This document shows, piece after piece, positions 25,441 to 59,390 of a DNA stretch of 64,000 nucleotides; within the stretch, counting starts at the first letter, position 1, and each line of letters opens with the position of its first letter. A model generated the notes under the pieces. The model was given only the letters and a program-made list of their open reading frames with translations, searched no databases and was not told the DNA's origin. The translations under genes were made by a program, and so were the position numbers. Source of the DNA: Psilocybe cubensis (Eukaryota). The stretch is from NCBI GenBank assembly GCA_017499595.2, contig CM039005.1, forward strand, positions 2,418,001 through 2,482,000, written 5' to 3'.

Positions 25441-25818
25441 TGTTAAAACTGCTCTCTATGTCTCCCTCACTTTGCTATCTTATCAGATTAGATTACTTTC
25501 TTCTTATCTTCATTTGCTCTCCAGACCATTCTAGACACATGATATTTATCAGTCCATAGACTGGTTTGGACCGGACCAGAGTAGACCTAGGTAGACCAGA
25601 GTACTTGAGTCTACATAGTATATAGTCACTTTAGTTTACATTCTGAAGTCCCCAGTTACTCACTTCGGACTTCAGGTTAGTTTGTTAGCACTTTGCTCAA
25701 TTCACTTAGTTACTCACTTTGGACTTCAGACGCTTCGTGCTTGCTTATCCCTGCGCCCTACGTTCTATAATTAGGTCGCCGAGTAGCTCACACTGCCCCA
25801 AGCTCGCCTGCTTCAACA
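25441..25818 (+). mobile_element. Solo LTR of the resident Copia family
   Basis: TGTTAAAAC...TTCAACA, 378 bp; perfect 5-bp TSD TGATT on both sides. Confidence 0.95.
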
Positions 25819-26675
25819 TGATTTGGAATTTCCATTTGCTGTCATCGAATATCTCCTCTAGTGGATTAGATATTCTCTATTTTTTCTTTCCATTTTCAGT
25901 TAATAGAGATGGAAAATGCAAGAACAATGAGAGTTATCATTTTCCTTGCAAGTTTTCTTGTTGGATATTTCTGTAATTTTGTCTTCCATGGCCCTGTGAA
26001 GGATCTCTAAAATAGCTGTTATGAATGTGCTATACTGCAAAAAGAATGAACAACACACCAGCAAAGAGCAACCAACTTACAAGATTGCATGGAATCGATT
26101 TTGCATATCTACCTGCCTAACATGTTATCCATATGGACAGTGTCATTATACATCACGTGACTTACAAAGAATATCAAAAAGATAAGATACTCTACAGATA
26201 AAATAAGAGCAAGATAAGAAAATCCCCTAAGATTGTTATTATCTGCCATCAATACTCAGACAATCAATCCCAATAAAAGTCAGATATGTGCTATTCTGCG
26301 GATATCTGCATAAATCTGCAATCCAGATATACGAGGAAATATACAGAAAATTTTCCACCTGCAGATTTTTTTCTGGATATGTCTGTTGTTTCTGCATGAG
26401 TGGACTCAACATAGGTTTTTTGGTTGTAGATAGTTCTGGAGCACTCTGAGACTATCTGTATCATTCTGTGCTTATCTACCAATCTTTGAACTGACAGTTT
26501 TATTTTAATCACATTATTCTGTACATGTGTCTGTAGCTATCCAAGACTATCCAAGCACATCTGCGCCAATATGCCATGAACATTCCTCTTGTATTTTCCA
26601 TATTGCCATGATCACTAAGTTAATCACTATAAAAAATGGCAGAATAATAAGTCCAACTGATATAGATACACATGA

Positions 26676-29600
26676 TGTTGAAACAGGCGAGCTCGGGGCA
26701 GTGTGAGCCACTCGGCGACCTAGTTATAGAACGTAGGGCGCAGGGATAAGCGAGCACGAAGCGTTTGAAGTCCAAAGTGAGTAACTGAGTGAATTGAGCA
26801 AAGTGCTAACAAACTAACCTGAAGTCCGAAGTGAGTAACTGGGGACTTCAGGATGTAAACTAGAGTGACTATATACTATGTAGACTCAAGTACTCTGGTC
26901 TACCTAGGTCTACTCTGGTCCGGTCCAGACCAGTCTATGGACTGATAAATATCATGTGTCTAGAATGGTCTGGAGAGCAAATGAAGATAAGAAGAAAGTA
27001 ATCTAATCTGATAAGATAGCAAAGTGAGGGAGACATAGAGAGCAGTTTTAACACTCCCCCCTGTTCTGACAAGTTTCCAGAACAAAGAAAAATAAAGCAA
27101 AACAGAGAAAGAAAGATTAAAGTTTAAGACCCATTTTATCTCTACAAAAGTCCACTTTAGGAGGTGAGAGGGGTTTGGTAAGAATATCAGCAGCTTGCTG
27201 ATCAGTAGGAATATAAGAAGGAGAAATCTTTCCAACACCAACAGCATCCCTAAGCCAATAATAGCGCAAATCAAGGTGCTTCATCCGTCCATAGTGCTCT
27301 GGATTCTTGGAAACACTGATAGATGACTGGTTGTCCATATGCAGCACAGAGGGCTCAGTGACTGTGTAGCCAAACTCCTCAAGGATATTGCGCATCCACA
27401 CAATTTCCTTGGCTGCCTCCACCGCAGCAATGTACTCTGCCTCAGTAGTAGACAGAGTTACAACAGTTTGGAATTTGCTTGCCCAGACCTCCAGCTAAAA
27501 CGGTCAAATAACCACTTGTAGAGCGTCCAGTGTCTACACAATCACCATGTGCAGCATCAGTGTAAGTGACAAAGTTATCATGGCCCACAGTGCCAGAATA
27601 AGTCAACTTGTAATCCAGAGTGCCTCTGAGATAGCGGAATAAATGTTTAACCGCAGCCCAATGCTTAGGCCCAGGATTGGAGTTGAAGCGTGCCAGATAG
27701 GACACAGTAAAAGCAATGTCAGGACGGGTCATGGTGGCTAGATACTGCAAGGAGCCAACTGCATTGAGGTAGGGAACATTTCGCATAAATTCCACCTCAT
27801 CTCCATTCTGAGGTCCATCTGCCTTGGAGAGAACAGTGCCCACAGCCATAGGTGTTTTGACCGGATTAGAATCAGTCATGCCATATGTATCAAGCATATC
27901 AAGGATATACTGACGCTGATGCAAGGAAATGGTTTTAGCAGCCATATCTCGCTCAATGGCAACACCAAGTAAATACTGTGTAGGACCCAGATCACGGAGT
28001 TCAAAACGCGCAGCTAGCTGCTTAACAGCTCTATCTATGGCAGCGTCCGATTTGGAGGCAAAGGTAATGTCATCAATGTAAATGGGAACAATAATCTTCA
28101 CATCTCCATCTGAATAGATATAGACAGAGCGATCTGATTCTATACGCTTGAACCCCATATCTGACAATGCCTCATGCAACTTGAGGTTCCATTGACGTGC
28201 AGACTGCTTAAGACCATAGAGCGACTTTTTGAGTTTCAAAACCATGTTAGGACCACCTTGGTGAAATCCTTCAGGTTGTAACATGTAAATCTCCTCGTCA
28301 AGGTCACCTTTAGTGAAAGCAGCTGTAATATCAACAGAGCGCAACTTCAAGTCTCCAATGGCGGCCAGAGCCACAATCAAGCGGAAAGTAGCAGGGCGGA
28401 AAGTAGGAGCAAAGACCTCATGGTAATCAATGCCAGGGCGCTGACTGTAGCCCTTGGCAACAATACGAGCCTTGTAGCGCTCTATACTGCCATCTGCATT
28501 TCGCTTGATTTTAAAGACCCAACCACAGCCAATTGCCTTTTGACCCGGAGGGAGCTCAACTCGCTCCCAAGTTTGATTGTGCTGCAACAGATTGAATTCT
28601 GTGTTAGCAGCCTCTTCCCACATGTGCGCATCAGGCGCTTTCATTGCCTGTTTGAATGTGCGCGGATCTGCGCTTGAAACAAGCCCAGCAAACTCCACCT
28701 CTTCAAATCCAGGATCATTGGCTTCAGGTGGTTCAGGATCATGTGAGACCTTCCACCATTCACCAGGCTGCTTAGGAACGCGAGTAGTGCGTCTCAACGT
28801 TGCAGGATCAACTGGAGCACGCTGGCGGCGTGCAGGCTTAGGAGGAGCTGCAGGAATGGCCTCAGGCTGTGGCGGTTCAGCTGGCTGTTCAGGAGGCGCA
28901 ATAGGCACTTCTGGCTCAATGACAGGACTTGGAGTAGAGTCATCCTCATCATCATCAAAATTGAAGCCATTAGAGTCCCCCCCTGAATTGGGAGGTGGTG
29001 CACTTGCAGAAGAAGTGGGAAGAAGGTCAAACTTTGGCATAGGGCCAGTGGACACTCCAGGGAAGCACCTTTCGTCGAAATCAGCTCTCTCAGAGATAAT
29101 GAACCTTTTGGTGACTGGGTTGTAAAACTCCCAGCCCTTGTACCCAGTAGGATACCCAACAAAGATACACTTCTCCATATGAGGCTGCAACGATTTGCGC
29201 TTATCTCCCTGAACATAAACATATGCAAGGCAACCCCAAACCCTCAAATGACTAACATCAGGTTTGCGCTTGTTCCAGCTTTCATACGGAGTCTTGTCCG
29301 GTAGAGGAGCTGTAGGAACACGATTCCATACATGCATGTATGCTGCAACACAGCGACCCCAAAACGAAGGTGGAACACGAGCCTCATTGAGCATGGAAGT
29401 AACATGTTCTGCCATGGTGCGATTTGCACGCTCTGCAACTCCGTTCTGTTGTGGGCGATTTCGCGTTGTACGACGACGCTCAATGCCACACTGGTCAGTG
29501 AATTTGATGAAAGCATTTGACATGTATTCACCAGCTTTGTCATCCTGCAGCGCTTTGATCTTAAAGCCTAATTTGTTCTCAGCCCATGCTTTGTACGTTT

Positions 29601-30697
29601 GAAACGCACTGAATGCATCGCTTTTGCGCTTAAGAAGCACAGCAGCTCTACTCTTTGTATGGTCATCAATAAAGGTTATCCAGTAGCGATAGCCTTCAGG
29701 AGTAGGGGGCGAGATAGGACCTTTCAGATCTGAGAAGATAAGCGCAAGCGGAACATCTGACATGCTGGGTGAAGAAGGAAATGGGTTGGAATGCATCTTG
29801 CCTGCAAGGCAAGGTTCACAAATGGGGTCAGGCTGTTGCTGTGAATTCAGCTTGAGTCCGGTGACCATACCCTCTCTAATCATCTTCTGGATGTCAGTGT
29901 AGCTATGATGAGCAAAGCGACGATGCCAGAGACTGATATCAAGGGGTAGAGTGGAATTGGAGGAAATGAAGGCAGATTCCGAAATAGGAACTGTATAACC
30001 GTTCAATAAAGCGCAGTTTGATGTACTAACATCTGCAGAGAAGAGACAAGCTCCTTTGCGATAAAACTCCATCAGATTAGCATCAATGGTGATTTTGAAG
30101 CCTTTGTGCTTTGTGAGGTATAGAACAGACAGTAGATTGTTTCGGAGATCTGGTACATGTAAAACTCTAGTTAACTCGACGCCTCTTGACTTTATTCCAT
30201 TTACAACTGGTTCAAAGAACACAGTGCCCACCCCTGCAGAATAAATAACTCGTTCATCTGCTAATCGGATTGGAATGCGAAGAGGGGTGTAATTTCTAAC
30301 CCAATTGCGGTGGGGCGTCATATGAGAAGTCGCCCCTGTGTCTGCAATCCAATCGTCATTAGTTTGGGGTGAAATGGAAGAGGGAACATCGGTATTAAGA
30401 GCACTTGCATTTCCAGCAAATTCTATGTCCTTGGACTCTTTTTCCTCTGAGGCCTTGTGCGCTCTGTTGCCTTTGCAAGCTGCTTTGACACGCTCCTTTG
30501 CATCCTTTTGCGCAGCAATGAACTTGTGACACTTGTCCATTGCATGATTGGTCATATCACAAAATGCACACTTGGGCTTGGATGCAGAAGGGGCTGGAGC
30601 GGTCTTGAATGCGGTGGCGAGTGCAGGCAACTCCGAAGCGCGGCAACGTTGCTGTATGTCCTCTGTGACAAAGGCTTGATGAATTGTAGCCTTGTCC
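26676..30697 (-). mobile_element. 5'-truncated Copia element (3' LTR 26676-27053, PPT, pol)
   Basis: Reverse-complement copy of about 43045-47086; homology stops abruptly at 30697 within gag; no 5' LTR or PBS adjacent. Confidence 0.95.
27117..30697 (-). pseudogene. Copia gag-pol (PR-IN-RT-RNase H), N-terminally truncated, 8-bp deletion frameshift at about 27487
   Basis: ORFs 27442-30630 and 27117-27422; GCTATTGG is missing relative to the intact copy. Confidence 0.92.
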
Positions 30698-31639: not shown

Positions 31640-32022
31640 TGTTAAAACTGCTCTTTATGTCTCCCTCACTTTGCTATCTTATCAGATTAGATTACTTTCT
31701 TTTTATCTTCATTTGCTCTCCAGACCATTCTAGACACATGATATTTATCAGTTCATAGACTGGTCTGGACCGGACCAGAGTAGACCTAGGTAGACCAGAG
31801 TATTTGAGTCTATACTGTACAGTATATAGTCACTCTAGTTTACATCCTGAAGTCCTCAGTTACTCACTTTGGACTTCAGGTTAGTTTGTTAGCACTTTGC
31901 TCAATTCACCCAGTTACTCACTTTGGACTTCAGATGCTTTGTGCTTGCTTATCCCCACGCCCTATGTTCTATAACTAGGTTGGCAAGTAGCTCAGACTGC
32001 TCCGAGCTCGCCTGCTTCAATA
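31640..32022 (+). mobile_element. More diverged solo LTR of the same Copia family
   Basis: Collinear with the other LTRs, with C>T changes; TSD ambiguous (TAAT(T) / TGATT). Confidence 0.9.
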
Positions 32023-33484: not shown

Positions 33485-35510
33485 ATGCAAGATTTCTTAA
33501 CTATCATGCCGCCTGGCAAAGCAAAACGGGTTGTATCCATTGCAGCAGCCAGAGAGGCTAAAGCAGAAAAGAAAGCTGCGCTTGACTCAGAGACTGCATT
33601 GGAGAGTCTTTGGGAAGAACTTAAAGCTGCACAATCACGTATCAAGGAATTAGAGACCATGCTTTTTAAGAAGGAAAAAGAGTGTGCTGGTCTAAGTTTA
33701 AGGCTTGAAAGTGCTCTTTTGGAGTTGGACAAGCATAAGAATGAAGCCTCCTTGATGAAGTCTAAAAGCAAAGACACTTATCATGAGCTTCGCATGCAAC
33801 GTCAAACTACAAAGCGCTAGAAAGCTAAAAACTCTCAATTAGAGGAACAAATTATGATTTTAAAGACAGCAGAGAAACAAGCATCCATACAGCATTTACG
33901 TGGAGCTCAGCAGTCACATGAATCCCACTTATCACTTAAAAAGGCTAATAAAGAATTGCGACAGACCTTATCTAAATCCTTATCCCAATGGTTTCTCCAA
34001 TTGGCTGATGCACATTCCAAGCTTAGTATATCCAATGACCATCTGCAGGATCTTCAAAAAGAGGCACTGAATCTGCGCAAAACCTTGGAATACACCAAAG
34101 CTACCAAGAATAAAGCTCTTGCTAATTTGCATCATAAAATTTATCAAGAGCAATCTGTGCATCATTTTACCAGCAAAGGAGTTATTACAGAAAGCACTTG
34201 GGATGTTGTTTGCCTTCTTGTTAAGGCTGGCTGCTCACGCAATTATATCCAAGATATTATAATGGCCGTGTTAAAATCTATGGGATTGGAAGCTATTGGT
34301 GGAATTAGTCGGGCTTCGGTGTCTTGCATTCTTCGTAAAGGTTACTTTGCTGCACAAATTCAACTTGGATATAAAATGAAGAATACAGATGGAATGACCT
34401 TTAGTGCCAATGGTACAGGCTACCGGAGCATCAATTATAATTCCCAATATGTTCATCTTCTTGCAAAAAACTCCACAATACTTGACAATACCACATTTGA
34501 ACAGCATGTTACTCGTTCACTTGGAATCCAATCTTTACGGGATGGTACAAGTGCAGAAGCTGTAGCAGATTGGCAAAAATCATTGGAGGGAATTCTTAGC
34601 ATTTACAATAATAGTCCACTTGGCAAGCAATCTGGATCCATTTTTAAAATTGCAGAACTCTTTATAAAACTTATGGGGATAAATACCAATCATTGTGCAA
34701 AGAAAAAGAAAGATGCTCATTTATTAGAGGCAATAAAGGCAGCTGCAGTTGATCAACAGCTTGGAGAGGAAAGAATGCTTGAAATGTCTTTTGAAGAAGT
34801 TTCAGAATATTTTTAAAAGGCTGAAGTAGCTATGATAAAGAAGGCAGGAGGGCAGAAAAAATGTGATGCTTTATCAGAAATCCAAAAAGGAGAAAGAAAA
34901 ACTGTTATATTGGAGACTGCAATTGCGCAACTTGGAAAGACTGCTTTTGATAGCCTTCCAGACTCTGAAAAGCAACTTCTTCGATTATTTATTTGGGCTA
35001 GATGTGGATGCCACAAAGACTTAAACACAGTCAAGGGTGGCTATATAGCAATGCTTAGGTGGTGGAATGAGAATGAAAGTGATGATGTTATCCGTCCAGT
35101 TCTGTTGGCAAATTGTGATAATGGTCCTGTTATACAAGAGCGTGCTACTATTCTTGAGGATAGAAATATACCCACAGCTGCTCAGGAGAGAGCCTTTTCT
35201 AAATCAACTCGAGGCGCAATTAAAACTATTAAAATTGCTGGAGCTATCTTTAACCACAAGGCTGATAAGAAAGGGCACCATGATGTATTCCGCTTTTGGT
35301 AGTGGGAGCACATTGGAGTTCCATTTACATTTCCAAATACTTTCAACAACTGGTTTCAATCCTATTGCAATGCATTTGCTGCATTTCTTTTGTATAAAGA
35401 AGAGTTCAAGCTGTTTTTAAAAAATCTCCGTATTAACAAACAAAACTCAACACTCAACCATATGGAAACCAATCTTATAAATGCTCTCAACTGCTCTTCT
35501 ACCGATAGCG
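33485..35510 (+). pseudogene. DDE-type transposase, 5' part (coiled-coil N-terminus, S.(D>N)GT, GCHKDLN CxxH motif), with stops
   Basis: ORFs 33383-33820, 33854-34816 and 34832-35302 lie in one frame separated by single stops; continues to the Copia insertion site. Confidence 0.7.
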
Positions 35511-35889
35511 TGTTAAAACTGCTCTCTATGTCTCCCTCACTTTTGCTATCTTATCAGATTAGATTACTTTCTTCTTATCTTCATTTGCTCTCCAGACCAT
35601 TCTAGACACATAATATTTATCAGTCCATAGACTGGTCTGGACTGGACCAGAGTAGACCTAGGTAGACCAGAGTACTTGAGTCTACACAGTATATAGTCAC
35701 TCTAGTTTACATCCTGAAGTCCCCAGTTACTCACTTTGGACTTCAGGTTAGTTTGTTAGCACTTTGCTCAATTCACTCAGTTACTCACTTCGGACTTTAG
35801 ACGCTTCGTGCTCGCTTATCCCTGCGCCCTACGTTCTATAGCTAGGTCGCCGAGTAGCTCACACTGCCCCGAGCTCGCCTGCTTCAACA

Positions 35890-35902
35890 GGTTATGGGCC
35901 CC
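35890..35902 (+). promoter_or_regulatory. Copia primer-binding site GGTTATGGGCCC(C), complementary to the anticodon arm of tRNA-Met (half-tRNA priming type)
   Basis: Directly follows the 5' LTR terminal CA; the reverse complement GGGCCCATAACC contains the CAT anticodon loop; same PBS type as Drosophila copia and yeast Ty5. Confidence 0.85.
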
Positions 35903-38900
35903 GCGCTCTAAGCGCTCCAATTCCGTGTTTTGCGAACCAAGTTGCTTTCTGCATAGTTTTCACAAAACGGTCATTTTAGTTTTTTTTTTGTCTTTTATCC
36001 TCTACCAGGCCCGGCCATACATTGCCGCTGCTAGTGGTTTACCGATCATGGGGGTGGGTATGTTATCTGCCAGTTATCTGCCCGGAATCTTCCGGGAAGA
36101 CATCCTTTTGCTCTTTATTCGATAACTCTACAACTTTACACCGTGAAAGTTAACAGTAATGTTGTTTGTAGGCCATAGAATACTATTTTCACTTCAAATT
36201 TGACAATGAGCGAGTGAGTGTGCTCAGAAACAGGTATATGTTATCTGCCACTGCAAATGTTATCTGCCATGCCCCTATTGTTATCTGCCAGTACACCGTT
36301 TTCAGTTCATTAGCTAATCCATTCTAAAGTCCCAACTCCGTTATTGTACCAAAACTGTAACTCGCTGCAACTAACGAGCGACAAGCTCAATACCTCTTTC
36401 CCTTCATTGTCCATCCAGCTTTTATTCTGAACAGTATTGAGACTAAACGTGCAGGTAAGCCCTTTCGGTATCTAGCTTAGAACGAGTGTATTTATTCATT
36501 GGTCTGTGTACTTTCACAGTGAATGTCAGCAAACATTTTGCTCCAGTCCGAAGGAGATTATCAAGCCGGTTCTATTGAACCTGCATGCTCCCACAGCAAT
36601 GTGTCGAGAATTGACGCCGTCCAAACACCGCCAGCGGAGACTTTTCAAGACGCGTCCGAGTCTGCTGTTATTCGTGACCGTGATGTTACAGGTATGTCAA
36701 TTAAATCACGTACGCGTCAATGACGTGTTGCACTAACAGACGCGGTTTGTAGATAGCGAAGCAGACGACGAGTTTGGCCTTGAGTTTGACTTGACACTGG
36801 AAGACTTGTTTGTTCTGGATGAACTTGAGCGTGAGGCATTGAAAAAAAATGACATAAATGCGAATCAGAGCACTAGTAAGTGATTTATCACTTTCTCGGA
36901 TATATATACACTTGTTATATTTACTGTTGAATAAATTTTACAGATTCAACGCCTACATCACCCTTATTGACGACGGCTGACAATCAGCCGTCAACGTCAA
37001 CGGATGCCGCTCATGTGTCAGTTATGGGTGAACGGGACTTGGAAGACCAAAATATGCCTCAGATAACCCTTGCCCAGCTACGTGAAGTTGCTTCACACTC
37101 ACAGCGTCGTAAGTGTGGGTATCTGTGTGAGAATATATGACTAACAGTACATATTTTAGAACCGTTTTTTACCCCCTATGCTACATATGAGGATAGTGAT
37201 ACGGATGACGATGCAGAAGTTAGTGATTGCGAGGACGAGGCTGGGAAGCCAAGGCAAGAACCTGCTAAAACAAGTCCAAAGGAAAAACACACAGGTATGT
37301 TCTTTGTATATATGTGCATTTTCTTTTAATTCAACATCATGCACATATGTCAGCCTGGTTCAAAAGACCACAGCATATGCCCAAGTGGCTATATGACTTT
37401 TTTGTGTCTGTTGTTCAGCCACTTATCTACTCAAAACATGGCAGAAAGCGTGGAATTCCTGCAATGTTCTCTGATAATACTCGAGCATATGCACCGCCGT
37501 CGTTCTGGATAAATCCTCCTGAGCCGTGCATATTACTTTCTAAGTACCGATTCGATCTTCCCACGCTTTGGCGCCCACGGATCTACGTCTGGATTCCTCA
37601 TGATTTTGTCAAGACTTTGTGCTGTCCAAACTGTGGAACTCCTCTAGAGAAGAATGGAGCCTCACGTCCTCGTCGAATTATTGACATCGAGGATAATTTC
37701 TACATTGTAACGTGGAAATATTACTGCCGCGATGGGTGCAAGTCGGCTTTCCGAGGTTGGAACACAGCTATAGTCAACTCTTTGCCTGCGTATCTACGAT
37801 TGGCCTTTCCAGCTGTGCTATCTCGTCGGAGCGGTGTTTCCACGCGCCTCCTGCGTCAACTTCGAGTTTGTAACCAACATAAGATGGGTCCGAGCGGCTA
37901 TCGGTCAATGTTGCTTGAAAATCATACGTTCAAATTCAGTCAAATTCAAAACCAATATCTCGAGGCAGTTTTCGAGATGGTTCGTGGACAGCAGCACGCA
38001 ACGTCAATAGGACAGGAAACGCTACATGCATTTGTTCCGCCAAAGGCTGATTCATTTGGGAACTTTACGGATCCTGACAAATACGCAGGGTTTGTTCCAA
38101 GCGAGAGATACCTTGCGAGCATGATGAATAAAGCCATTGAACGTGATGAAAGTGACGCTAATCAACACACTGCATGTCTTGCACCTGACCAAATCGCAAT
38201 CGATGACTCGCACAAGGTAATAATCAAATATATTACTTCTATTTGTGTCAATTCTTACTGATCTCCATTGCGTTAGGTCAACAAGCATATTGCAAAGGTT
38301 GACGGTGTACCAGTATTTACTGCACTATTTACGTGCATGGACTCAAAGTATATCCAGGGACAAGCTCTTACTCTCACTAAATCTCATGAAGAGCGCTCAG
38401 GCCCTTTACAACAAATTGCCAAATCTGTAAAGCGCTACGGACATGATAATCCAAGTGTTATGTATTCGGATGACCCGGTCAAGGTATGTTGATATTTGGA
38501 TTTGTCTTGATCAGTAAAAAGAAGCTAAAGTATTACTATGTATAAGGACAAACCACTTCTGTATAGCGCATTCCCAGAACTCTTTGAAGATTTAATGCCT
38601 ACGGCTGCTGCTCATGGTTTGACGGCACTTGATTTACCCGATGACATCAAAGTGTCCTGGTTGGCATCGTGGGATGTGACAGAATCCACACTTGCTGCTC
38701 TTCTATCATCCCTTGATTCTGATTCTGAAAGATATCTGTGTGTTAGCCTTGATGCTGAATGGAATTTGTCACGGAAGATTGGAGTGTCGGTAATCCAAAT
38801 TGCCCCTCACAGCCTTCCAAACGTGATCTATGTCATACCCGTGCGTAATAATTCAACTATATTTAAACTGTACTAAATGATTCAAAGGTTCATAAATTCG

Positions 38901-41900
38901 GTAATAAACTACCACCATCCCTCCTCCGACTTTTAATATCAAATCAAGTCTTTAAAATTGGATCTGGAATCAAGGGCGACATCACTCGATTAAAAAAACA
39001 GTTTCCAATTCTCGGCTCGCAGCTGACTTTCAATCTTATTGATTTGAAAGAATACTGCGTCGAGCGCGGATTAATTGCCCGAAAGGCATCTGGATCTCTT
39101 GAAGCCCTGTGCGAGGGTATTCTTAAGCAATATCTTCCAAAAGAGCAACGACTTAGAAGATGCGAGGACTGGGAGCTCAAATCACTAAGCTCCGAGCTTC
39201 TTCATTATGCCGCACGTGATGTTTTTGCATCGCGCATACTTTTTGAGAAGGCAATGGAATGCGCGCCTATTGCCCGTCCACAGTTTGATTCGCCAGCTGG
39301 AACACCAGTCGCCTTGCTCTCCCAAGAAGGTAGCGACCCAATTGCGTATGGTGTCATATCTCCTAACCAACCTACAACACTTGGAAACATTCGAGTTAAA
39401 ACACCAAATCGCAATCGCCTTGTTCTTGATATACACACCGTGATATCTCCTTCGGCTGCTGTGATGCTTCATTTGCCATCGCTGGGACACAACAAGAAAG
39501 GAAAAACAAAATCCGGAGCTCTTACATTAGAGCAAATACGAGCGTCTTCTTTGGATCCACATATGTCAACATTTAAAATTGTTGCACCCCTCCTATTAAT
39601 GGAGTTTGATTTCCGAGCATCACCGTCCGAGGTAAGCAAGTTGCAACGATGACTATATATCCATATTAATCTTCAAAATTTGAAGTTAATGAGCAGTGCA
39701 TCGCGCCCTAATATTGAGGCATCCAAAAAGCATACCAATCTAGAAGACAATCTGCTTTCTGGGTCTAGTATTGAGGAAGATAGCTTCTTAGATGACACTG
39801 CATCTTTGGCTAATGATTTGGGCGAAGAAACCGAGGTTTCACCTCAAGACACATCGGATCTTGTTGCTTTAGATATGCTTGAGGCATACTCAAAGATTGA
39901 AAATTGCGAAGGTTTGTTAACTAATGCTTATAACTTGCTTCATCCGGATTTGTATTGATGTAATCTATCATTAGATGCTCAGCGAGTGCAGTCCGCAACC
40001 CAACATTCTATTGTGAATACCCTTCAAAAGTTGATTAATTCACCTCCCGATGCCAAATCCGAGTATACACGAGTCAAAAAGGACATTTTCCATGCATTCC
40101 ATATGATCCCCATATCAGTCAATCATGGCGCACGCCCTTCTTTTCTTCGTGCTATGCGCGACCATTTGATGCGCTGGGATCCCAAAATTCGAGTGACAGT
40201 CGATGAGGCCTGCCAAAAACACTTCAACCTCACGTTTGAGCAAATGCTGCTTAGAAATCCTCGATTTATTGCCGAACGCACCCCCCGATATGTCCCCTCT
40301 CCAAGTATTCTTGTTCCTGCATTAAAATTGGTCTTTGAGACTTATGGCAATGCCTTGGACGTCAAGACAGGATTGCCACTTTTTAGTGCAGATGCGCAAC
40401 AGAAAGCTAATGCTGTAATTGAACTTGCACGTGAAGGCTATTTATCCGACATCGAAGGAGTTGTCCTATACGAGCGAGCAGGGATTGACAAATATGGTCT
40501 CCAAAAGTATAAATGTCTACGGGGAACAAACAATGTTGAAGGCGGCCCGCATGGTGACATTTACCGAAAATTTGGTGCTCTTCACGGTAAGATTTTAAAT
40601 GCTGGATAGTTTGTATAGCACTATGCTAACATGTATACGGATTATTACTTTCATAGCCGGACCAAGACTTACAGTTAACTGCTTGACCGATCATAGAACC
40701 TGGTACAATCTACAGGTTGGTTATCACATTTCTGTTTTTACAAGATTATTGGCTTAATACAATGCACTTTGTAACTCCAAATCTTATACTAGGCATTTGC
40801 AAAGCATATCTTTGGTGTGGACTGGGAGTACCACCATGATATTGCACTAATAAACCGGACCTCCTTTCTTTTAAACTATCTCTCCGATACTATTGATGGA
40901 TCAGCCTCATATACAGAGTGGATAAATGGGGATCTTTATGAGAAGACCACCGAAGAGTTTGGGGTTTGCAAATTTCCAGGTATATAATTAAAATCCACCT
41001 AACTTCTATCTTCCCCATGTTCACATAATTTTTCATATTTAGATTCGCTCCGAATACGGCTGGGAATGGAGCCATATAGCGCTGAGGCTGAAATCCAATA
41101 TCGACTCAACTCAAGTGACAATTGGCTTCGTAAGCGGCAAGGCTTAGCTTTGCCTGTATTACCGCCTACAACTTTGGAGGCCAGAAAGTATTTCTTTTTG
41201 AAGATTCGGGATTTTGCCGCTCTTGCTAACGACGCTGGCCAAAGTCGGATTAATTTTGAAGCATTTGCACAAGAGTGGAACCGGACCGCAAATGGAAAGG
41301 AACGAGTATATATCACCACCGAGGTGTTGGCAGCCTACTCAAAGACATGGGAAAAGATGACAAATATTCGCGCATCGCAAGAGCTCATTCAAGATAAGCT
41401 AGAGGTTCTTAAAGTGACAGCAAATGTCTTTGCTGCAGAAAAGCAGCCTTTTCCAATATACCTTTCGGGAACATCTGTATCAACACAGCCTCGACATGGA
41501 GTTATCGAGATACCAGACTCCGAGTCATTACAATCCAACCAGGTTCCTTCTTCGCTCTCTGTTAATCTTTCTATCTCTCGCCCCCCATTACCCAGTCCTC
41601 CTACTCAGAACATTTCCAACTCTTCCATTGATCCCAGACTATTGTCCCTTTCCGCTACAAATGTTGAAGTGCCAGTCCGGTGAGTCATACTTTTCAGTTC
41701 AACCAAGTCTCAACTTAATTTGAATTCACTTTAGTACATTGTCTTCAACGTCGTCCGATTTGCAATATCACAATGAAGACAATGTCAACAATGATCGACC
41801 AACTAAGCGCAGACGCATCGTTCCCGACAGTAAACGTAAACGTTCTCTGCGCAAATGCCGTCGATGCCTCAAAACTACGTGCGCAGGGAACAGCAATGTA

Positions 41901-42284
41901 CTTAATTGTAACATTGTGTGCAAGGTACCGTGTACAAAGTGCAAGCGCACAACCGAATGTCGAGGTGTAGATGGTGGGCGTGCATGCACATGGAAAGGTG
42001 GTGATACTATTGCTACATCTCCTTAAACACTAGAAATTTGTGGTATTTGTGGTCCGTAAGTACTCAAGTTACCAAATATCTTCACAAATTCACGAAGTTC
42101 AATGTCTCACGCTTTGGACACACGTGATGCTCGTGGAATTGTAATTGATGAGCATTGGTAATCCTCTTCATTCTCTTTCTTTTTTCTTCATTTTCCGCAT
42201 TCAATACCCACCCCCATGAACGGAAAACCCTGCTAGTAGGGTTGAACGAGCACGCCTTACGCGACTTGTTAACCTCGGTTGAGC
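35903..42284 (+). mobile_element. Dada-superfamily-like DNA transposon inserted in the Copia PBS
   Basis: 7-bp direct repeat GGGCCCC at 35896-35902 and 42285-42291; no long TIR; subterminal inverted repeat 36036-36061 / 42204-42229 (24 of 26 match); one multi-exon transposase gene. Confidence 0.8.
36523..42026 (+). CDS. Multi-exon (about 13 exons) Dada-like transposase with zinc-ribbon region, DDE-type core, inserted DEDDy 3'-5' exonuclease and Cys-rich C-terminus
   Basis: Short GT-AG introns of about 47-77 bp (e.g. 38217-38276, 38484-38546, 38841-38887, 40980-41042) join the ORFs in frame. Motifs: CPNC..YYC..C; IDDSHK-VNK; YSDD; LDAEWN / GIKGDITRL / YAARD (Exo I/II/III); KDIFH; CLRGTNNVEGGPH; C-terminal CRRC...CTKC. 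No internal stops seen in the inferred exons; the start codon is uncertain. Confidence 0.8.
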
Positions 42285-42496
42285 GGGCCCCCGTCGCCTA
42301 ATCCCCGAGTTATTTCTAGTTAAAAGTAACCCTTTTAAATTAGGCTAGTTTAACTTCGTCTTTTCAACTTGCGTTCGCATCGCACCCCGAGCTCCGGGTA
42401 ACGCCTAGTTTGTTTCCACACATTATTACACATCCCCACACATTACTACCAATACTCGTATCCATCCGCTTACACGTTCCTTCGCAATTCGCAATA

Positions 42497-45400
42497 ATGA
42501 CTTCTGATCCCCAAATCACTCTATTGAACTCAACCAACTACAACACCTGGGCAGGCCAGATGACCGCCTATCTCCAGTCTAAAGGGATATGGCGCATTGT
42601 CAGCGGTGCTAGAGCACAGCCAACGCTCTCAGACAAGCCTACTGCTCAGGAGGAAGCTTTGCTTGAAACCTATTTTGAGCAGAGAGACAAAGCATGTGGT
42701 TTGATCTATCTCAGTTTGGAGAATGATCAGAGGGTTCATGTGGAAGCCATCAAGGATGATCCTATCAAAATGTGGGATGCCCTCGCCACTGTACATCAGC
42801 AAAAGCGCCCTGGCAACCGCTTTAATGCATATGATGATCTGTTCTCCATCCGAAAGGAGGAAGGTGAAAACCTTCAAACCCTAATCAATAGAGTTGAGCA
42901 AGCCATGTTGCTAATTCAGCAGCTTCGCCCTAAGGGGTTTGATCTGGCTAAGCTTGATGAAGAGCTTGCTTCGCTTGCTCTGGTCAGGGCACTCCCAGAA
43001 GAGTACAGTTCATTTGCATCCTCACTTCTCCTTTTGGACAAGTTGGACAAGGCTACAATTCATCAAGCCTTTGTCACAGAGGACATACAGCGACGTCGCC
43101 GCGCTTCGGAGTTGCCTGCACTCGCCACCGCGTTCCAGACCGCTCCAGCCTCTTCTGCATCCAAGCCCAAGTGCGCATTTTGTGATATGACCAATCATGC
43201 AATGGACAAGTGTCACAAGTTCATTGCTGCGCAAAAAGATGCGAAGGAGGGGGTCAAAGCGGCTCGCAAAGGCAATAGAGCGCACAAGGCCTCAGAGGCA
43301 TCCAGGGAGGAAAAAGAGTCCAAGGACATGGAATTTGCTGGAAATGCAAGTGCTCTTAATACCGATGTTCCCTCTTCCATTTCACCCCAAACTAATGACG
43401 ATTGGATTGCAGACACAGGGGCGACTTCTCATATGACGCCCCACCGCAATTGGGTTAGAAATTACACCCCTCTTCGCATTCCAATCCGATTAGCAGATGA
43501 ACGAGTTATTTATTCTGCAGGGGTGGGCACTGTGTTCTTTGAACCAGTTGTAAATGGAATAAAGTCAAGAGGCGTCGAGTTAACTAGAGTTTTACATGTA
43601 CCAGATCTCCGAAACAATCTACTGTCTGTTCTATACCTCACAAAGCACAAAGGCTTCAAAATCACCATTGATGCTAATCTGATGGAGTTTTATCGCAAAG
43701 GAGCTTGTCTCTTCTCTGCAGATGTTAGTACATCAAACTGCGCTTTATTGAATGGTTATACAGTTCCTATTTCGGAATCTGCCTTCATTTCCTCCAATTC
43801 CACTCTACCCCTTGATATCAGTCTCTGGCATCGTCGCTTTGCTCATCATAGCTACACTGACATCCAGAAGATGATTAGAGAGGGTATGGTCACCGGACTC
43901 AAGCTGAATTCACAGCAACAGCCTGACCCCATTTGTGAACCTTGCCTTGCAGGCAAGATGCATTCCAACTCATTTCCTTCTTCACCAAGCATGTCAGATG
44001 TTCCGCTTGCGCTTATCTTCTCAGATCTGAAAGGTCCTATCTCGCCCCCTACTCCTGAAGGCTATCGCTACTGGATAACCTTTATTGATGACCATACAAA
44101 GAGTAGAGCTGCTGTGCTTCTTAAGCGCAAAAGCGATGCATTCAGTGCGTTCCAAACGTACAAAGCATGGGCTGAGAACAAATTAGGCTTTAAGATCAAA
44201 GCGCTGCAGGATGACAAAGCTGGTGAATACATGTCAAATGCTTTCATCAAATTCACTGACCAGTGTGGCATTGAGCGTCGTCATACAACGCGAAACCGCC
44301 CACAACAGAACGGAGTTGCAGAGCGTGCAAATCGCACCATGGCAGAACATGTTACTTCCATGCTCAATGAGGCTCGTGTTCCACCTTCGTTTTGGGGTCG
44401 CTGTGTTGCAGCATACATGCATGTATGGAATCGTGTTCCTACAGCTCCTCTACCGGATAAGACTCCGTATGAAAGCTGGAACAAGCGCAAACCTGATGTT
44501 AGTCATTTGAGGGTTTGGGGTTGCCTTGCATATGTTTATGTTCAGGAAGATAAGCGCAAATCGTTGCAGCCTCATATGGAAAAGTGTATCTTTGTTGGGT
44601 ATCCTACTGGGTACAAGGGCTGGGAGTTTTACAACCCAGTCACCAAAAGGTTCATTATCTCTGAGAGAGCTGATTTCGACGAAAGGTGCTTCCCTGGGGT
44701 GTCCACTGGCCCTATGCCAAAGGTTGACCTTCTTCCCACTTCTTCTGCAAGTGCACCACCTCCCAATTCAGGGGGGAACTCTAATGGCTTCAACTTTGAT
44801 GATGATGAGGATGACTCTACTCCAAGTCCTGTCATTGAGCCAGAAGTGCCTATTGCGCCTCCTGAACAGCCAGCTGAACCGCCACAGCCTGAGGCCTTTT
44901 CTGCACCTCCTCCTAAGCCTGCACGCCACCAGTGTGCTCCAGTTGATTCCGCAACATTAAAACGCACTACTCGCGTTCCTAAGCAGCCTGGTAAATGGTG
45001 GAAGCTCTCACATGATCCTGAACCACCTGAAGCCAATGATCCTGGATTTGAAGAGGTGGAGTTTGCTGGGCTTGTTTCAAGCGCAGATCCGCGCACATTC
45101 AAACAGGCAATGAAAGTGCCTGATGCGCACATGTGGAAAGAGGCTGCTAACACAGAATTCAATCTGTTGCAGCACAATCAAACTTGGGAGCGAGTTGAGC
45201 TCCCTCCGGGTCAAAAGGCAATTGGCTGTGGTTGGGTCTTTAAAATCAAGCGAAATGCAGATGGCAGTATAGAGCGCTACAAGGCTCGTATTGTTGCCAA
45301 GGGCTACAGTCAGCGCCCTGGCATTGATTACCATGAGGTCTTTGCTTCTACTTTCCGCCCTGCTACTTTCTGCTTGATTGTGGCTCTGGCCGCCATTGGA

Positions 45401-46645
45401 GACTTGAAGTTGCGCTCTGTTGATATTACAGCTGCTTTCACTAAAGGTGACCTTGACGAGGAGATTTACATGTTACAACCTAAAGGATTTCACCAAGGTG
45501 GTCCTAACATGGTTTTGAAACTCAAAAAGTCGCTCTATGGTCTTAAGCAGTCTGCACGTCAATGGAACCTCAAGTTGCATGAGGCATTGTCAGATATGGG
45601 GTTCAAGCGTATAGAATCAGATCGCTCTGTCTACATCTATTCAGATGGAGATGTGAAGATTATTGTTCCCATTTACATTGATGACATTACCTTTGCCTCC
45701 AAATCGGATGCTGCCATAGATAGAGCTGTTAAGCAGCTAGCTGCGCGTTTTAAACTCCGTGATCTGGGTCCTACACAGTATTTACTTGGTGTTGCCATTG
45801 AGCGAGATATGGCTGCTAAAACAATTTCCTTGCATCAGCGTCAGTATATCCTTGATATGCTTGATACATATGGCATGACTGATTCTAATCCGGTCAAAAC
45901 ACCTATGGCTGTAGGCACTGTTCTTTCCAAGGCAGATGGACCTCAGAATGGAGATGAGGTGGAATTTATGCGAAATGTTCCCTACCTCAATGCAGTTGGC
46001 TCCTTGCAGTATCTAGCCACCATGACCCGTCCTGACATTGCTTTTACTGTGTCCTATCTGGCACGCTTCAACTCCAATCCTGGGCCTAAGCATTGGGCTG
46101 CGGTTAAACATTTATTCCGCTATCTCAGAGGCACTCTGGATTACAAGTTGACTTATTCTGGCGCTGTGGGCCATGATAACTTTGTCACCTACACTGATGC
46201 TGCACATGGTGATTGTGTAGATACTGGACGCTCTACGAGTGGTTATTTGACCGTTCTAGCTGGAGGTGCTATTGGCTGGGCAAGCAAACTCCAAACTGTT
46301 GTAACTCTGTCTACTACTGAGGCAGAGTACATTGCTGCGGTGGAGGCAGCCAAGGAGATTGTGTGGATGCGCAATATCCTTGAGGAGTTTGGCTACACAG
46401 TCACTGAGCCCTCTGTGCTGCATATGGACAACCAGTCATCTATCAGTGTTTCCAAGAATCCAGAGCACCATGGACAGATGAAGCACCTTGATTTGCGCTA
46501 TTATTGGCTTAGGGATGCTGTTGGTGTTGGAAAGATTTCTCCTTCTTATATTCCTACTGATCAGCAAGCTGCTGATATTCTCACCAAACCCCTCTCACCT
46601 CCCAAAGTGGACTTTTGTAGAGATAAAATGGGTCTCAAACTTTAA
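42497..46645 (+). CDS. Copia Gag-Pol polyprotein (1382 aa from the first ATG), intact ORF
   Basis: Gag CAFC..H..C knuckle, WIADTGAT protease, WHRRFAH..CEPC and QQNGVAER integrase, YIDD RT, and TDAA..STTEAEY..ADILTK RNase H, in Copia domain order. Confidence 0.97.
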   Translation: MTSDPQITLLNSTNYNTWAGQMTAYLQSKGIWRIVSGARAQPTLSDKPTAQEEALLETYFEQRDKACGLIYLSLENDQRVHVEAIKDDPIKMWDALATVHQQKRPGNRFNAYDDLFSIRKEEGENLQTLINRVEQAMLLIQQLRPKGFDLAKLDEELASLALVRALPEEYSSFASSLLLLDKLDKATIHQAFVTEDIQRRRRASELPALATAFQTAPASSASKPKCAFCDMTNHAMDKCHKFIAAQKDAKEGVKAARKGNRAHKASEASREEKESKDMEFAGNASALNTDVPSSISPQTNDDWIADTGATSHMTPHRNWVRNYTPLRIPIRLADERVIYSAGVGTVFFEPVVNGIKSRGVELTRVLHVPDLRNNLLSVLYLTKHKGFKITIDANLMEFYRKGACLFSADVSTSNCALLNGYTVPISESAFISSNSTLPLDISLWHRRFAHHSYTDIQKMIREGMVTGLKLNSQQQPDPICEPCLAGKMHSNSFPSSPSMSDVPLALIFSDLKGPISPPTPEGYRYWITFIDDHTKSRAAVLLKRKSDAFSAFQTYKAWAENKLGFKIKALQDDKAGEYMSNAFIKFTDQCGIERRHTTRNRPQQNGVAERANRTMAEHVTSMLNEARVPPSFWGRCVAAYMHVWNRVPTAPLPDKTPYESWNKRKPDVSHLRVWGCLAYVYVQEDKRKSLQPHMEKCIFVGYPTGYKGWEFYNPVTKRFIISERADFDERCFPGVSTGPMPKVDLLPTSSASAPPPNSGGNSNGFNFDDDEDDSTPSPVIEPEVPIAPPEQPAEPPQPEAFSAPPPKPARHQCAPVDSATLKRTTRVPKQPGKWWKLSHDPEPPEANDPGFEEVEFAGLVSSADPRTFKQAMKVPDAHMWKEAANTEFNLLQHNQTWERVELPPGQKAIGCGWVFKIKRNADGSIERYKARIVAKGYSQRPGIDYHEVFASTFRPATFCLIVALAAIGDLKLRSVDITAAFTKGDLDEEIYMLQPKGFHQGGPNMVLKLKKSLYGLKQSARQWNLKLHEALSDMGFKRIESDRSVYIYSDGDVKIIVPIYIDDITFASKSDAAIDRAVKQLAARFKLRDLGPTQYLLGVAIERDMAAKTISLHQRQYILDMLDTYGMTDSNPVKTPMAVGTVLSKADGPQNGDEVEFMRNVPYLNAVGSLQYLATMTRPDIAFTVSYLARFNSNPGPKHWAAVKHLFRYLRGTLDYKLTYSGAVGHDNFVTYTDAAHGDCVDTGRSTSGYLTVLAGGAIGWASKLQTVVTLSTTEAEYIAAVEAAKEIVWMRNILEEFGYTVTEPSVLHMDNQSSISVSKNPEHHGQMKHLDLRYYWLRDAVGVGKISPSYIPTDQQAADILTKPLSPPKVDFCRDKMGLKL

Positions 46646-46695
46646 TCTTTCTTTCTCTGTTTTGCGTTATTTTTCTTTGTTCTGGAGACTTGTCA

Positions 46696-46708
46696 GAACA
46701 GGGGGGAG
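46696..46708 (+). promoter_or_regulatory. Polypurine tract of the Copia element
   Basis: GAACAGGGGGGAG immediately before the 3' LTR TG. Confidence 0.85.
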
Positions 46709-47091
46709 TGTTAAAACTGCTCTCTATGTCTCCCTCACTTTGCTATCTTATCAGATTAGATTACTTTCTTCTTATCTTCATTTGCTCTCCAGACCATTCT
46801 AGACACATGATATTTATCAGTCCATAGACTGGTCTGGACTGGACCAGAGTAAACCTAGGTAGACCAGAGTACTTGAGTCTACACAGTATATAGTCACTCT
46901 AGTTTACATTCTGAAGTCCCCAGTTACTCACTTCGGACTTCAGGTTAGTTTGTTAGCACTTTGCTCAATTCACTCAGTTACTCACTTTGGACTTCAGACG
47001 CTTCGTGCTCGCTTATCCCTGCGCCCTACGTTCTATAACTAGGTCGCCGAGTAGCTCACACTGCCCCGAGCTCGCCTGCTTCAACATAGCG

Positions 47092-49180: not shown

Positions 49181-49270
49181 CAGAGTAATGGATGATGTGG
49201 GAACCGTGGTATAGAATCATGCTTGCTTTACTGCTGTATTAATTGGCAAGCACTAGAAGGGGTCACCATC

Positions 49271-49475
49271 TATTGAAGCAAGCGAGCTCAAGGCAGTGTG
49301 AGCTACATGGCAACCTAGTTATAGAATGTAGGGCACAGGAATAAGTGAGCACGAAGCGTCTGAAGTCCAAATCAAGTAACTGGGTGAAACTAATCCAAAG
49401 TCCAAAGGGAGTAACTGGGGACTTCAGGATATAAACTAAAGTGACTATATACTCTGGTCCAGTCCAAACTAGTGT
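49271..49475 (-). mobile_element. Diverged Copia-family LTR fragment, split by a LINE (continues at 54082-54123)
   Basis: Similar to 26676-26965 (TGAAGCA.GCGAGCTC..GGCAGTGTGAGC...CTGGTCC.GTCCA.AC.AGT); resumes after the poly(A). Confidence 0.85.
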
Positions 49476-56070: not shown

Positions 56071-56787
56071 TCCAGAGTGCCTCTGAGGTAGCGGAATAAA
56101 TATTTAACCGCAGCCCAATGCTTAGGCCTAGGATTGGAGTTGAAGCATGCCAAATAGGACACAGTAAAAGCAATGTCAGGACGGGTCATGGTGGCTAGAT
56201 ACTGCAAGGAGCCAACTGCATTGAGGTAGGGAACATTTCACATAAATTCCACCTTCTCTCCATTCTGAGGTCCATCTGCCTTGGACAGAATAGTGCCCAC
56301 AACCATAGGTGTTTTGACCGGATTAGAATCAGTCATGCTATATATATCAAGCATATCGAGGATATACTGACGCTGATGCAAGGAAATGGTTTTAGCAGCC
56401 ATATTTCGCTCAATGGCAACACCAAGTAAATACTGTGTAGGACCCAGATCATGGAGTTTAAAACGCGCAGCTAGCTGCTTAACAGCTCTATCTATGGCGG
56501 CGTCTGATTTGGAGGCAAAGGTGATGTCATCAATGTAAATGGGAACAATAATTTTCACATCTCCATCTGAATAGATGTAGACAGAGCGATCTGATTCTAT
56601 ACACTTGAACCCCATATCTGACAATGCCTCATGCAACTTGAGGTTCCATTGACGTGCAGACTGCTTAAGACCATAGAGCGACTTTTTGAGCTTCAAAACC
56701 ATGTTAGGACCACCTTGGTGAAATCCTTCAGGTTGTAACATGTAAAGCTCCTCGTCTAGGTCACCTTTAGTGAAAGCAGCTATAATA
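56071..56787 (-). pseudogene. Internal RT fragment of the resident Copia family
   Basis: Near-identical to 27614-28330. Confidence 0.93.
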
Positions 56788-58391
56788 CAGTGGGCAAAAA
56801 AACCGTTTGAGTGTTGGTCACGTATGAAAAGATTAATTTATAACTTTGAAATTAAAAATATTAAAAATATGAGATTATTCACAGGTATACTAGAGGGTAT
56901 TAGCTAAAGGATGGCACACTGATCATGTGATTTTTCCAAGAATTGACCAAACAGGAGCATATACAGTTTGCTAAGTCATTTGAACAGTTTTTTTGCTAAA
57001 CACTTGAGTATCAATAAATCATATCTACTAGTACTTTGTATGTCCACCCTTAGCCTTAATCACTGCTGCAGACCTTCTAGGCATGCTAGCAATCAAATTC
57101 TGCACCACTTTCTTGGGTATTCCATTCCATTCTTTCTCAACCCTCTCCCAAAGTTCATGGATACCCTTTGGTGGGACTTTATGTTCATTAAGTCTTCTTT
57201 TGAGGTATTCCCATAGATGTTCAATGGGGTTGAGATCTGGAGATTGTGCAGGCCATATGAGGACTCTAAAATTCTGCTCTTCAAACCATTTCTTGGCCAA
57301 TTTTGAGGTGTGCTTGGGGTCATTATCTTGCTGAAAGTGGATATCTTCTACCTGTTGACCATACCACTCCAAGGATTTTAGGAGCTCATCACCTAGGATC
57401 TCAGTGTATAACTGAGCATCCATCTTCCCATCAATTCTAGTGGCAAATCCAATTCCTTCTCATCCCATACAACCCCACATCATCAAGTTTCCTCCTCCAA
57501 ACTTCACAGTTTGCTTGATCCTCCTGGGGTCCTATCTGTTTTCCTTGTCTATCCACACCTGATCTCTGCCATCTGAACCCAATCTGTTGATTTTGGTCTC
57601 ATCTGACCACCAGACCCTTGCCCAGTCATCCACAGTCCACTCCAAGTGCCTTTCTGCAAACTCTAATCTAGCCCTCCTATGCTTTTTTGATAACAAAGGC
57701 TTCTTTTGTTTTGCCACTGAGACCATGCCAGTTGATTTGAGTGCATTCCTAACTATTTGAAGACTGATATTCTGGCCATTAATAGTAGCCAGAGACTTGG
57801 CAGCTTGCACAGCATTCTTGATTTGTCCAGTTTGAATTCCACGCTTGGTATAGGTGATATTGGCACCAGTCAGCTTCTTTGGGCGTCCTCCATGGGAAAC
57901 CACTGCTTCAGGACAGTAGTCTTGGCAAATCTTGGTGATAGAACCAGTACTAGCTCCAGTCTGGGCCTTGATAGAGGCATAGGAGTGACCAGAAGTAAGA
58001 AGAGAGACAATAGTAGCAATGGTTGCTTTAGAGAGGGGTTTCATGCTTGATTGGGGGGATAAAGAGGTTGGTTGTAGCTATTATATACCTATTCAACATG
58101 TAGTCACATGATTTTATTGATAGTTGTTTGGTATATCAACAAAGTCATGTGATAATACATAGTTATAGCATTTAAATTACTAGCAAAAAAACTGTTCGAA
58201 TGACTTAGCAAATTGTGTATGCTGCTGTTTGGTCAATTCTTGGACAAATCACATGATCAGTGTGTCATCCTTTAGCTAACACCATATAGTATACCTGTGA
58301 ATAATCTCATATTTTTAACATTTTTAATTTCAAAGTTATAAATTAATCTTTTTATACGTGACCAACACTCGAACGGTTTTTTTGCCCACTG
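56788..58391 (-). mobile_element. Tc1/mariner DNA transposon, copy 2 (transposase pseudogene 57028-58044)
   Basis: Same TIRs, TA flanks and the same two premature stops as copy 1. Confidence 0.95.
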
Positions 58392-59390
58392 TAAGTCAGC
58401 ACCCCAGAAGTTGCGCGACATAAGTCAGCTCAGCAGAGGGGACAGGTCCTAAGGCCGAAGGGCAGGGGGAACCGGTGGCGTGGGTGTGCTTGATGATTGT
58501 TGATGTTGAAGGTCAGGACACGTTGGAGGCCATGGGTAAGGCCCCAGACAAACAAATGTCAACATTGCAGTCAGAGGCATTGGCCGTCAGAGGCGGCTGG
58601 TAAGGCTCTAGACAAACAAACGTCAACATTGTTGTTCTAACCAAAATATTCTAAGTCCTCTTCTTCCTATAACCCATTACTCCATTCCTTTCTCTTACCC
58701 CCTTCCTTAGGCTGACTTATGTTGCCTATTCGTGTTCTCTACATTATGGCTGACTTATGTCACTTTTTGATCACGGTCTGACTTATGTCAACCATGATTA
58801 TCTTCAACTTACCAGGCTCTCTCAATCTTGGATCCCCGCCTCTTACTTTTTTTCCGCGTCGGACACCCCATTACAAGCCGACAACAATTTTTCAAAGAAG
58901 AACCGACCAGACAATCTTTGCTGGAAGGATTACACCGGGTTGGTATTCTTTACTGGTATTCCATTCACGTTTTCTAGCTTATGCTGTCTATGCTAGTCTA
59001 CTACATTTGATCTTATGAAAGACTTGCAATTCTATTCTATGTCTTGCCAATATCACGGTAAAGTTGTTTACTAAACAATGATAAACAAATAGACCCTTGG
59101 TTGATTGCAATCCAGGACGTGGGAAACTATGTTACACTTCTTGATATTAATCTCAACCCCACGCCTTTCATTGTCCTCCCATAACCAGCCCTCCCATTGT
59201 CAGTCGTCCCATCTCTATCTCTCTCCAGCAACCTTTGCCAATTTTTTAAACAATGTGAGTGGCATTCAACAATATAACCAGGCTGACTTATGTCGCCACA
59301 CTACGATCTCAGCTGATTTATGTTGCCAAGGCCATCCCACCAGCTGACTTATGTCGCTGATGTCATTCTACCAGCTGACTTGTGTTGCTG
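58392..59390. repeat. Dispersed array of the GCTGACTTATGT(C/T)GC motif, left part
   Basis: About 9 copies: reverse near 58392 and 58416; forward near 58711, 58749, 58778, 59282, 59312, 59343 and 59374. Confidence 0.8.

Follow-up and report, generated by a model that had tools for sequence, protein, structure and literature searches.

Psilocybe cubensis contig CM039005.1 (GCA_017499595.2) carries, between positions 2,418,001 and 2,482,000 of the forward strand, a 64,000-nucleotide stretch (the window, whose own numbering we use throughout) in which a Ty1/Copia retrotransposon is interrupted by a DNA transposon of 6194 bp (36036-42229, plus strand). It is very probable that this is a routine nested insertion: an apparently autonomous, Dada-related transposon that encodes DUF6729 and a 3'-5' exonuclease lies within a young Ty1/Copia copy, in its 5' untranslated leader, and reached it with no specificity for tRNA or for the retrotransposon primer-binding site (PBS). 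An earlier, sequence-only reading of the same DNA had proposed a 6382-bp element starting 13 bp past the 5' long terminal repeat (LTR), with no typical terminal inverted repeats (TIRs) and a 7-bp target-site duplication (TSD), GGGCCCC, that uses the PBS as its target by recognizing the anticodon arm of tRNA-Met.

To define the borders, two raw-read whole-genome shotgun runs (X11 and X12) and two Logan contig sets (X2 and X5) were aligned to positions 35000-43500. The best-supported joint, present in 4/4 runs, leads from 36027 to 42230; it skips 6202 bases, and 8 letters at the joint fit either side. It was supported by 524 reads in X11 (245+279) and by 487 reads in X12 (253+234); in X2 and X5 a single contig each carried it, at depths of 657 and 352. 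The X5 contig (record 11) is the empty site itself, running over 35861-36027 and then 42230-42365. In X11 the 5' LTR was covered at a depth of ~2450, against ~40 for single-copy sequence (depths for X11 and X12 are both read orientations summed). The bin 35852-36135 stood at ~850 and the Copia body from 42384 onward at ~1100-1280, with the 21 bins of the insert (36136-42099) at about 30-50; over the raw-read runs these bins stood at about 30-60. The contig runs gave the same pattern, with 17-40 for the insert versus 440-1620 for the Copia body. Depth is therefore multicopy to ~36035, single-copy between, and multicopy again from 42230, and the insert is about single-copy in the runs examined. 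From the Copia body depth relative to that of the insert (~40), and from the ~500 empty-site reads per run, the number of Copia copies without the insert is on the order of 25-35. The insertion point follows the LTR by 139 bp and the PBS by 126 bp, and the gag start codon lies ~260 bp downstream of it.

Both copies of GGGCCCC are Copia sequence, because in the many uninterrupted Copia copies the leader itself includes 35903-36027 and the sequence from 42238 on. The left copy (35896-35902) is part of the PBS-like GGTTATGGGCCCC; the right copy (42285-42291, plus strand) is ordinary Copia leader and lies inside multicopy sequence and inside X5 record 11. The sequence-only reading was thus correct that the pair exists and that a foreign DUF6729 segment lies between its members, but the pair does not bound the insertion, and the 6382-bp element drawn from it has to be replaced by the insert at 36036-42229. 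When the two leader pieces were shuffled 2000 times they shared a mean of 3.06 7-mers, and at least one in 90% of shuffles; the shared GGGCCCC is a match expected by chance and not a TSD. None of the 15 joints listed, of 50, had borders of the 35902/42292 type, and the empty site that had been reconstructed across the GGGCCCC pair was not the one seen, since the uninterrupted Copia copies examined in the reads join 36027 to 42230 in every run. Within the window there is no second PBS-bearing Copia 5' end, and so no empty site there.

The true ends of the insert are a TIR pair inside a duplication of 8 rather than 7 bp. The left TIR, GGTTTACCGATCATGGGGGTGGGTAT (36036-36061, plus strand), and the right TIR (42204-42229, minus strand) are 26 bp long and match at 24/26 positions; allowing up to 3 mismatches, these are the only 2 matches in the window, where 0 are expected. 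The TSD, CTGCTAGT, is a perfect 8-bp duplication at 36028-36035 and 42230-42237 (both plus strand), with the Copia leader resuming at the right-hand copy, and this length agrees with the 8 letters that the read joint leaves ambiguous. At the left end, 5 exact or one-mismatch copies of TGTTATCTGCC occupy 36061-36289 (plus strand). This repeat has 6 matches in the window versus 1.36 expected, 5 of them in the left subterminus and none at the right end, and the copies are probably binding sites for the transposase.

The host is a complete Ty1/Copia element with gag, integrase and RVT_2 in Copia order. Its 5' LTR (35511-35889, plus strand, with the CA end at 35889) and 3' LTR (46709-47086, plus strand, with a polypurine tract just upstream) have TG...CA ends and are ~98% identical (7 mismatches in ~380 aligned columns), and the 5-bp TSD TAGCG stands on both sides, at 35506-35510 and 47087-47091. 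Directly after the 5' LTR comes an intact PBS (35890-35902, plus strand), which we take to be of the type that pairs with initiator tRNA-Met through its anticodon stem-loop. The first part of the 5' leader follows (35903-36035, plus strand), its last 8 bp being the left copy of the transposon TSD. Beyond the insert, the gag-pol open reading frame (ORF; 42497-46645, plus strand) holds Retrotran_gag_2, gag_pre-integrs, rve and RVT_2 (Pfam) in one open frame of 1433 codons, with the gag ATG at 42497. The TG..CA LTRs, 5-bp TSD, PBS, polypurine tract and gag-integrase-reverse transcriptase order are those of the Ty1/Copia group. Ty5 and Drosophila copia, which are Ty1/Copia elements with a half-tRNA PBS, are alike in having the PBS right after the LTR, in its type and in the 5-bp TSD; relative to them the host has no unusual feature, and the transposon went in elsewhere than at its PBS, which is intact. 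Internal priming of the Ty5 type is described in PMC5371799.

Other traces of the same Copia family lie in the window. A solo LTR at 25441-25819 has its own 5-bp TSD, TGATT. A second, 5'-truncated copy at 26675-30697 (minus strand) retains the 3' LTR and most of pol, without a 5' LTR or PBS, and is 98-99% identical to 43307-47087 and 95% identical over 43045-43298. Diverged LTRs at 31650-32021 and 49259-49460 (minus strand) show ~70-90% identity and then run into unrelated sequence with no PBS; these are apparently solo or degraded LTRs.

We examined target choice through relatives of the transposon. A metagenome scan with the family alignment gave 59 loci, and a pattern search of these found 14 termini in 12/59 loci that begin GGTTT(A/T)CC and carry CTGGGT(A/G)T; six further pattern rows without the second block were dropped. 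With one terminus cut by a contig end left out, the termini of the relatives (13) and the window's two were aligned, and across all 15 the positions G1, G2, T3, T4 and C8 and the string TGGGT are invariant. The TTATCTGCCCGG block is specific to left ends and the purine-rich subterminal GAAAA/GAA repeats are specific to right ends, both being conserved among relatives. Two of the loci contain complete elements: L001 (5137-11266, 6130 bp, TIR 28/28, TSD AAAAGAAG) and L026 (7314-13286, 5973 bp, TIR about 21/26, TSD CTTATTGT). The TSDs of the 3/3 complete elements, the window's included, are perfect, 8 bp long and unrelated in sequence. ARAGORN found no tRNA in the window, in 12/12 loci or in 3/3 in-silico empty sites, and Rfam at the gathering threshold gave 0 matches in 11 loci. 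The genes that flank L001 and L026 are ordinary (an ICMT-like methyltransferase, a PFF1 protease and SPT23/MGA2). Target choice shows no specificity for tRNA, the PBS or any small-RNA gene. Insertion of other copies at sites unrelated to tRNA or PBS sequence, which the sequence-only reading had itself named as counting against its claim, is what these loci display.

Reads from the same species point the same way. About 450 reads per run (X11, X12) cross the left terminus at 36036 into flanks whose agreement is only 0.36-0.37, and ~600 reads per run leave the element after 36072 into one defined 30-letter continuation, with an agreement of 0.97. This indicates a multicopy and probably short derivative, with its first 37 bp in common with the element (36036-36072) and located at many different sites, which argues against site-specific insertion; the derivative is probably a non-autonomous family, resembling miniature inverted-repeat transposable elements, that is mobilised by this transposase.

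The same runs also contain read joints from 42229 back to 36036, a step back of 6194 (25 reads in X11 and 26 in X12). These right-to-left end joints carry distinct 6-letter spacers, of which there are at least 3 variants with ~9 reads each, one of them in both runs; the spacers differ from the 8-bp TSD. The joints could come from a few heterozygous loci at which the short derivative is present as a tandem or inverted pair, or from head-to-tail or circular forms. By analogy with IS256, such tail-to-head joints with their 6-letter spacers could be tandem or circular transposition intermediates.

The transposase gene has several exons (36523-42026, plus strand), with no frame disruption in the conserved blocks examined. 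Its product runs from an acidic N-terminus through a Cys4 finger with DUF6729 (exon in 37350-38240), a D..D pair, a WRN-like DEDDy exonuclease (~38700-39260) and a DxxH and E part (39959-40594) to a C-terminal Cys-rich motif (41800-42026). As the earlier reading had anticipated, a Pfam search detects DUF6729 (PF20499, 2.3e-18; exon in 37269-38261); it also detects the 3'-5' exonuclease DNA_pol_A_exo1 (PF01612, 4.4e-07, on 38867-39652). A protein search matched P0002, a 1475-aa 'Werner Syndrome-like exonuclease [Psilocybe cubensis]'. In tblastn this protein falls on the locus in 8 segments, 4 of them at 100% identity and the others, which span introns, at 82.6-97.6%; because 4/8 segments map at 100%, P0002 is the gene model of this locus. 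A second Psilocybe cubensis copy (P0050) is 94-95% identical to the query over the shared part, and the protein search returned dozens of transposase relatives of 1100-2000 aa in Agaricomycetes. The DUF6729 plus 3'-5' exonuclease transposase family is widespread in this class.

An alignment of 14 full-length relatives, in P0002 numbering, gives the conserved residues. The Cys4 finger C288-x2-C291...C322-x3-C326 is conserved and lies inside DUF6729. D481/482 in IAIDDSHK and D550/551 in SDDPVKD are spaced by 69 aa; together with E1164 in NNVEGGPH they are invariant or at least 90% conserved among the 14 sequences, as is D1012-I-F-H1015 (the DxxH motif, at least 90%). The exonuclease residues D623, E625, D683, Y759 and D763 are likewise conserved. 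By sequence the exonuclease domain matches WRN at 9e-13 (PDB search, with matches to WRN, EXD2 and mut-7), and its fold superimposes on that of WRN with a Z score of 24.5 and a root-mean-square deviation of 2.0 over 184 residues; in the PDB search with the family profile the exonuclease domain was the sole part matched. A C-terminal Cys-rich block starting CRRC occurs in 6/14 aligned relatives and in the unspliced frame 41724-42026 of the window, with no conserved His seen in it.

The public gene models are incomplete. P0002 skips two conserved exons that are open here (~40656-40716 and ~40795-40984) and also splices out the conserved C-terminal Cys-rich motif (41724-42026), P0050 is modelled without its N-terminus, and the label 'Werner syndrome-like exonuclease' hides a transposase. 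Coding capacity looks intact, because the skipped exons and the C-terminal motif are present and open in the window; the element is apparently autonomous.

The protein layout is where the earlier term 'Dada-like' holds up. In PMC3706591, Dada elements are described as 4.7-11 kb long, with introns, an N-terminal CCCC finger, a DxxH after the second D and a C-terminal CCHC finger; Dada-U6_DR has D567, D635 and E811, a D-D spacing of 68 aa, and in the Laccaria and Ectocarpus Dada elements a DEDDy exonuclease separates the second D from DxxH. The window's element has the D-D spacing with its E, the DxxH, the CCCC finger and the placement of the DEDDy exonuclease. The closest likeness is to Dada-1_LB and Dada-2_LB of Laccaria bicolor and Dada-1_ES of Ectocarpus, which share the Cys4 finger, the DDE core with DxxH, the position of the DnaQ-like DEDDy exonuclease and an intron-rich gene; the host of the two Laccaria elements belongs to the same order, Agaricales, and the length found here is within the published range. 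The main text of PMC3706591, so far as accessible, gives no termini, TSDs or targets for these three elements; here there are 26-bp TIRs and an 8-bp TSD.

The term fails for the ends and the targets. That source describes published Dada elements as having no TIRs (only short subterminal ones), 6-7-bp TSDs and fixed sites in small-RNA genes, and places all Dada families with clearly definable termini in such genes, the Laccaria termini not being given. The target-specific families (Dada-U6, -U1, -tA, -tL, -tV and others, of fish, Daphnia and Perkinsus) have the same motif layout as the window's element, with a D-D spacing of 68 aa (Dada-U6_DR) versus 69 aa here, but they lack TIRs, make 6-7-bp TSDs and occupy fixed small nuclear RNA, tRNA or 5S sites, whereas the family found here has TIRs, 8-bp TSDs and unrelated, non-RNA targets.

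Against this background, insertion of a 6382-bp, TIR-less Dada element into the Copia PBS by recognition of the tRNA-Met anticodon arm is almost certainly not what happened. GGGCCCC does flank a foreign segment on both sides, and tRNA genes are indeed targets of animal and Perkinsus Dada elements, with the anticodon arm a frequent site (PMC3706591 and PMC8869645). However, 35903-36027 and 42238-42284, which would belong to such an element, are multicopy Copia sequence that is contiguous over the 36027 to 42230 joint in 4/4 runs, the true TIR pair with its 8-bp TSD is found inside those borders, the shared 7-mer is at chance level, and the relatives have unrelated targets. The inference of PBS or tRNA targeting fails because it rested on the wrong borders. 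The notion of a DNA transposon that homes to a retrotransposon PBS as a tRNA mimic does not hold, and therefore no new targeting biology is shown. That the segment is instead a host gene, as the public annotation as an exonuclease gene and its single-copy state might suggest, or a stable cargo of the Copia element, is very improbable given the many Copia copies and empty-site reads without it, its TIRs and TSD, termini that are conserved in diverged relatives at unrelated loci, and a multicopy derivative with the same first 37 bp.

An 8-bp TSD with short TIRs is a hallmark of hAT transposons, and membership of hAT, or of another group with the C/DxxH signature, deserves more weight than either of these, whilst still being unlikely. 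The element resembles hAT members (Ac, Hermes, Tol2) in its 8-bp TSDs, found in 3/3 complete elements, in its short TIRs (24-28 bp) with subterminal repeats, and in a C/DxxH-type signature that follows the second D and precedes E. That signature is common to Dada, hAT, P, MuDR and Kolobok (PMC8869645). In place of the hAT dimerisation domain and BED finger, however, the much larger protein (~1500 aa) has DUF6729 and an inserted exonuclease: a search of 10 ORF pieces at E<=0.1 detected neither a hAT dimerisation (PF05699) or other hAT-type transposase domain nor a BED domain, and the precomputed Pfam lists of 56 full-length relatives hold only PF20499 and PF01612. The motif is DxxH and not CxxH, an exonuclease after the second D is described for Dada alone, and the D-D spacing is within one residue of that of Dada-U6_DR.

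Several points weigh against a Dada-related, autonomous transposon nested at this site. No reads were seen in X11 or X12 that prove the insertion at this Copia site; the right junction is crossed by X2 contigs only, which are identical to the window for 30 nt beyond it. The catalytic residues are inferred by conservation alone. The AlphaFold model of P0050, in which the first 150 residues score below 50, has a mean predicted local distance difference test score (pLDDT) of 70, and a wide fold search (VIA-align) returned only DnaQ-like exonucleases, the list being filled by the exonuclease domain; such a list says nothing against an RNase H-like core. The likeness to Dada is a reasonable one, drawn from protein architecture as set against published descriptions and not from sequence comparison with Repbase Dada. 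In three protein searches (56, 56 and 105 matches), all named matches were fungal, with neither Laccaria nor any animal among their sources, which at word-based sensitivity is weak evidence; the only lead to reference Dada sequences is a DUF6729 cluster in the ESM Atlas with Chordata as its commonest phylum. As to transposition activity, the sole hint of a second locus would be one X5 contig of 7218 nt, in which the whole element is followed by 1023 nt unlike the window. This is a weak hint of another locus in that strain, since the contig could have been assembled along a false path across the repeated terminus.

On the favoured reading, a nested insertion by a Dada-related transposon without tRNA or PBS specificity, the transposase would recognise the element by binding to its subterminal repeats and 26-bp inverted ends and excise it by DDE-type cut-and-paste. 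The target would be cut with an 8-bp stagger, whose repair would yield the CTGCTAGT duplication. The built-in WRN-like exonuclease may process or trim DNA ends, as Kojima and Jurka suggested for the inserted exonuclease (Kojima & Jurka 2013, PMC3706591). The transposon would have inserted after the Copia copy had integrated, and since the Copia LTRs are ~98% identical, both insertions would be fairly recent.

We found no literature on DUF6729 (PF20499), and no description, in the papers searched, of hAT-like ends and absent RNA-gene specificity in this fungal lineage, although these may be recorded in Repbase. A wider reading, which we regard as possible and put forward tentatively, is that the exonuclease-bearing, Dada-like branch of fungi is a conventional cut-and-paste family: its members would have TIRs of ~26 bp, subterminal repeats that differ between the two ends and 8-bp TSDs, would give rise to short derivatives in many copies, and would not be specific for RNA genes. 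In that case it is the animal and Perkinsus branches that would carry the derived traits, namely absent TIRs, TSDs of 6-7 bp and insertion into small-RNA genes, and the termini of this family would be defined here for the first time. This bears on how target specificity evolved in Dada, since no other DNA-transposon superfamily is described as strictly targeting small-RNA genes. For annotation, the value is that a large Agaricomycete gene family, whose members bear the labels 'Werner syndrome-like exonuclease', '3'-5' exonuclease' or DUF6729, encodes a transposase, and that elements of this family have definable ends, unlike the textbook Dada ends.

Two further sets of repeats lie elsewhere in the window. 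Several blocks of 200-300 bp, 93-99% identical, are shared between 17523-19113 and 56786-58393, ~39 kb apart, some in direct and some in inverted orientation; a further repeat family or an LTR pair may account for them. A 683-bp inverted repeat (59572-60254 and 61725-62407, 98% identical) has arms that hold arrays of a 23-bp tandem repeat (59554-59853 and 62169-62467), and it resembles the long TIRs by which a DNA transposon, of the foldback or another type, would be bounded.

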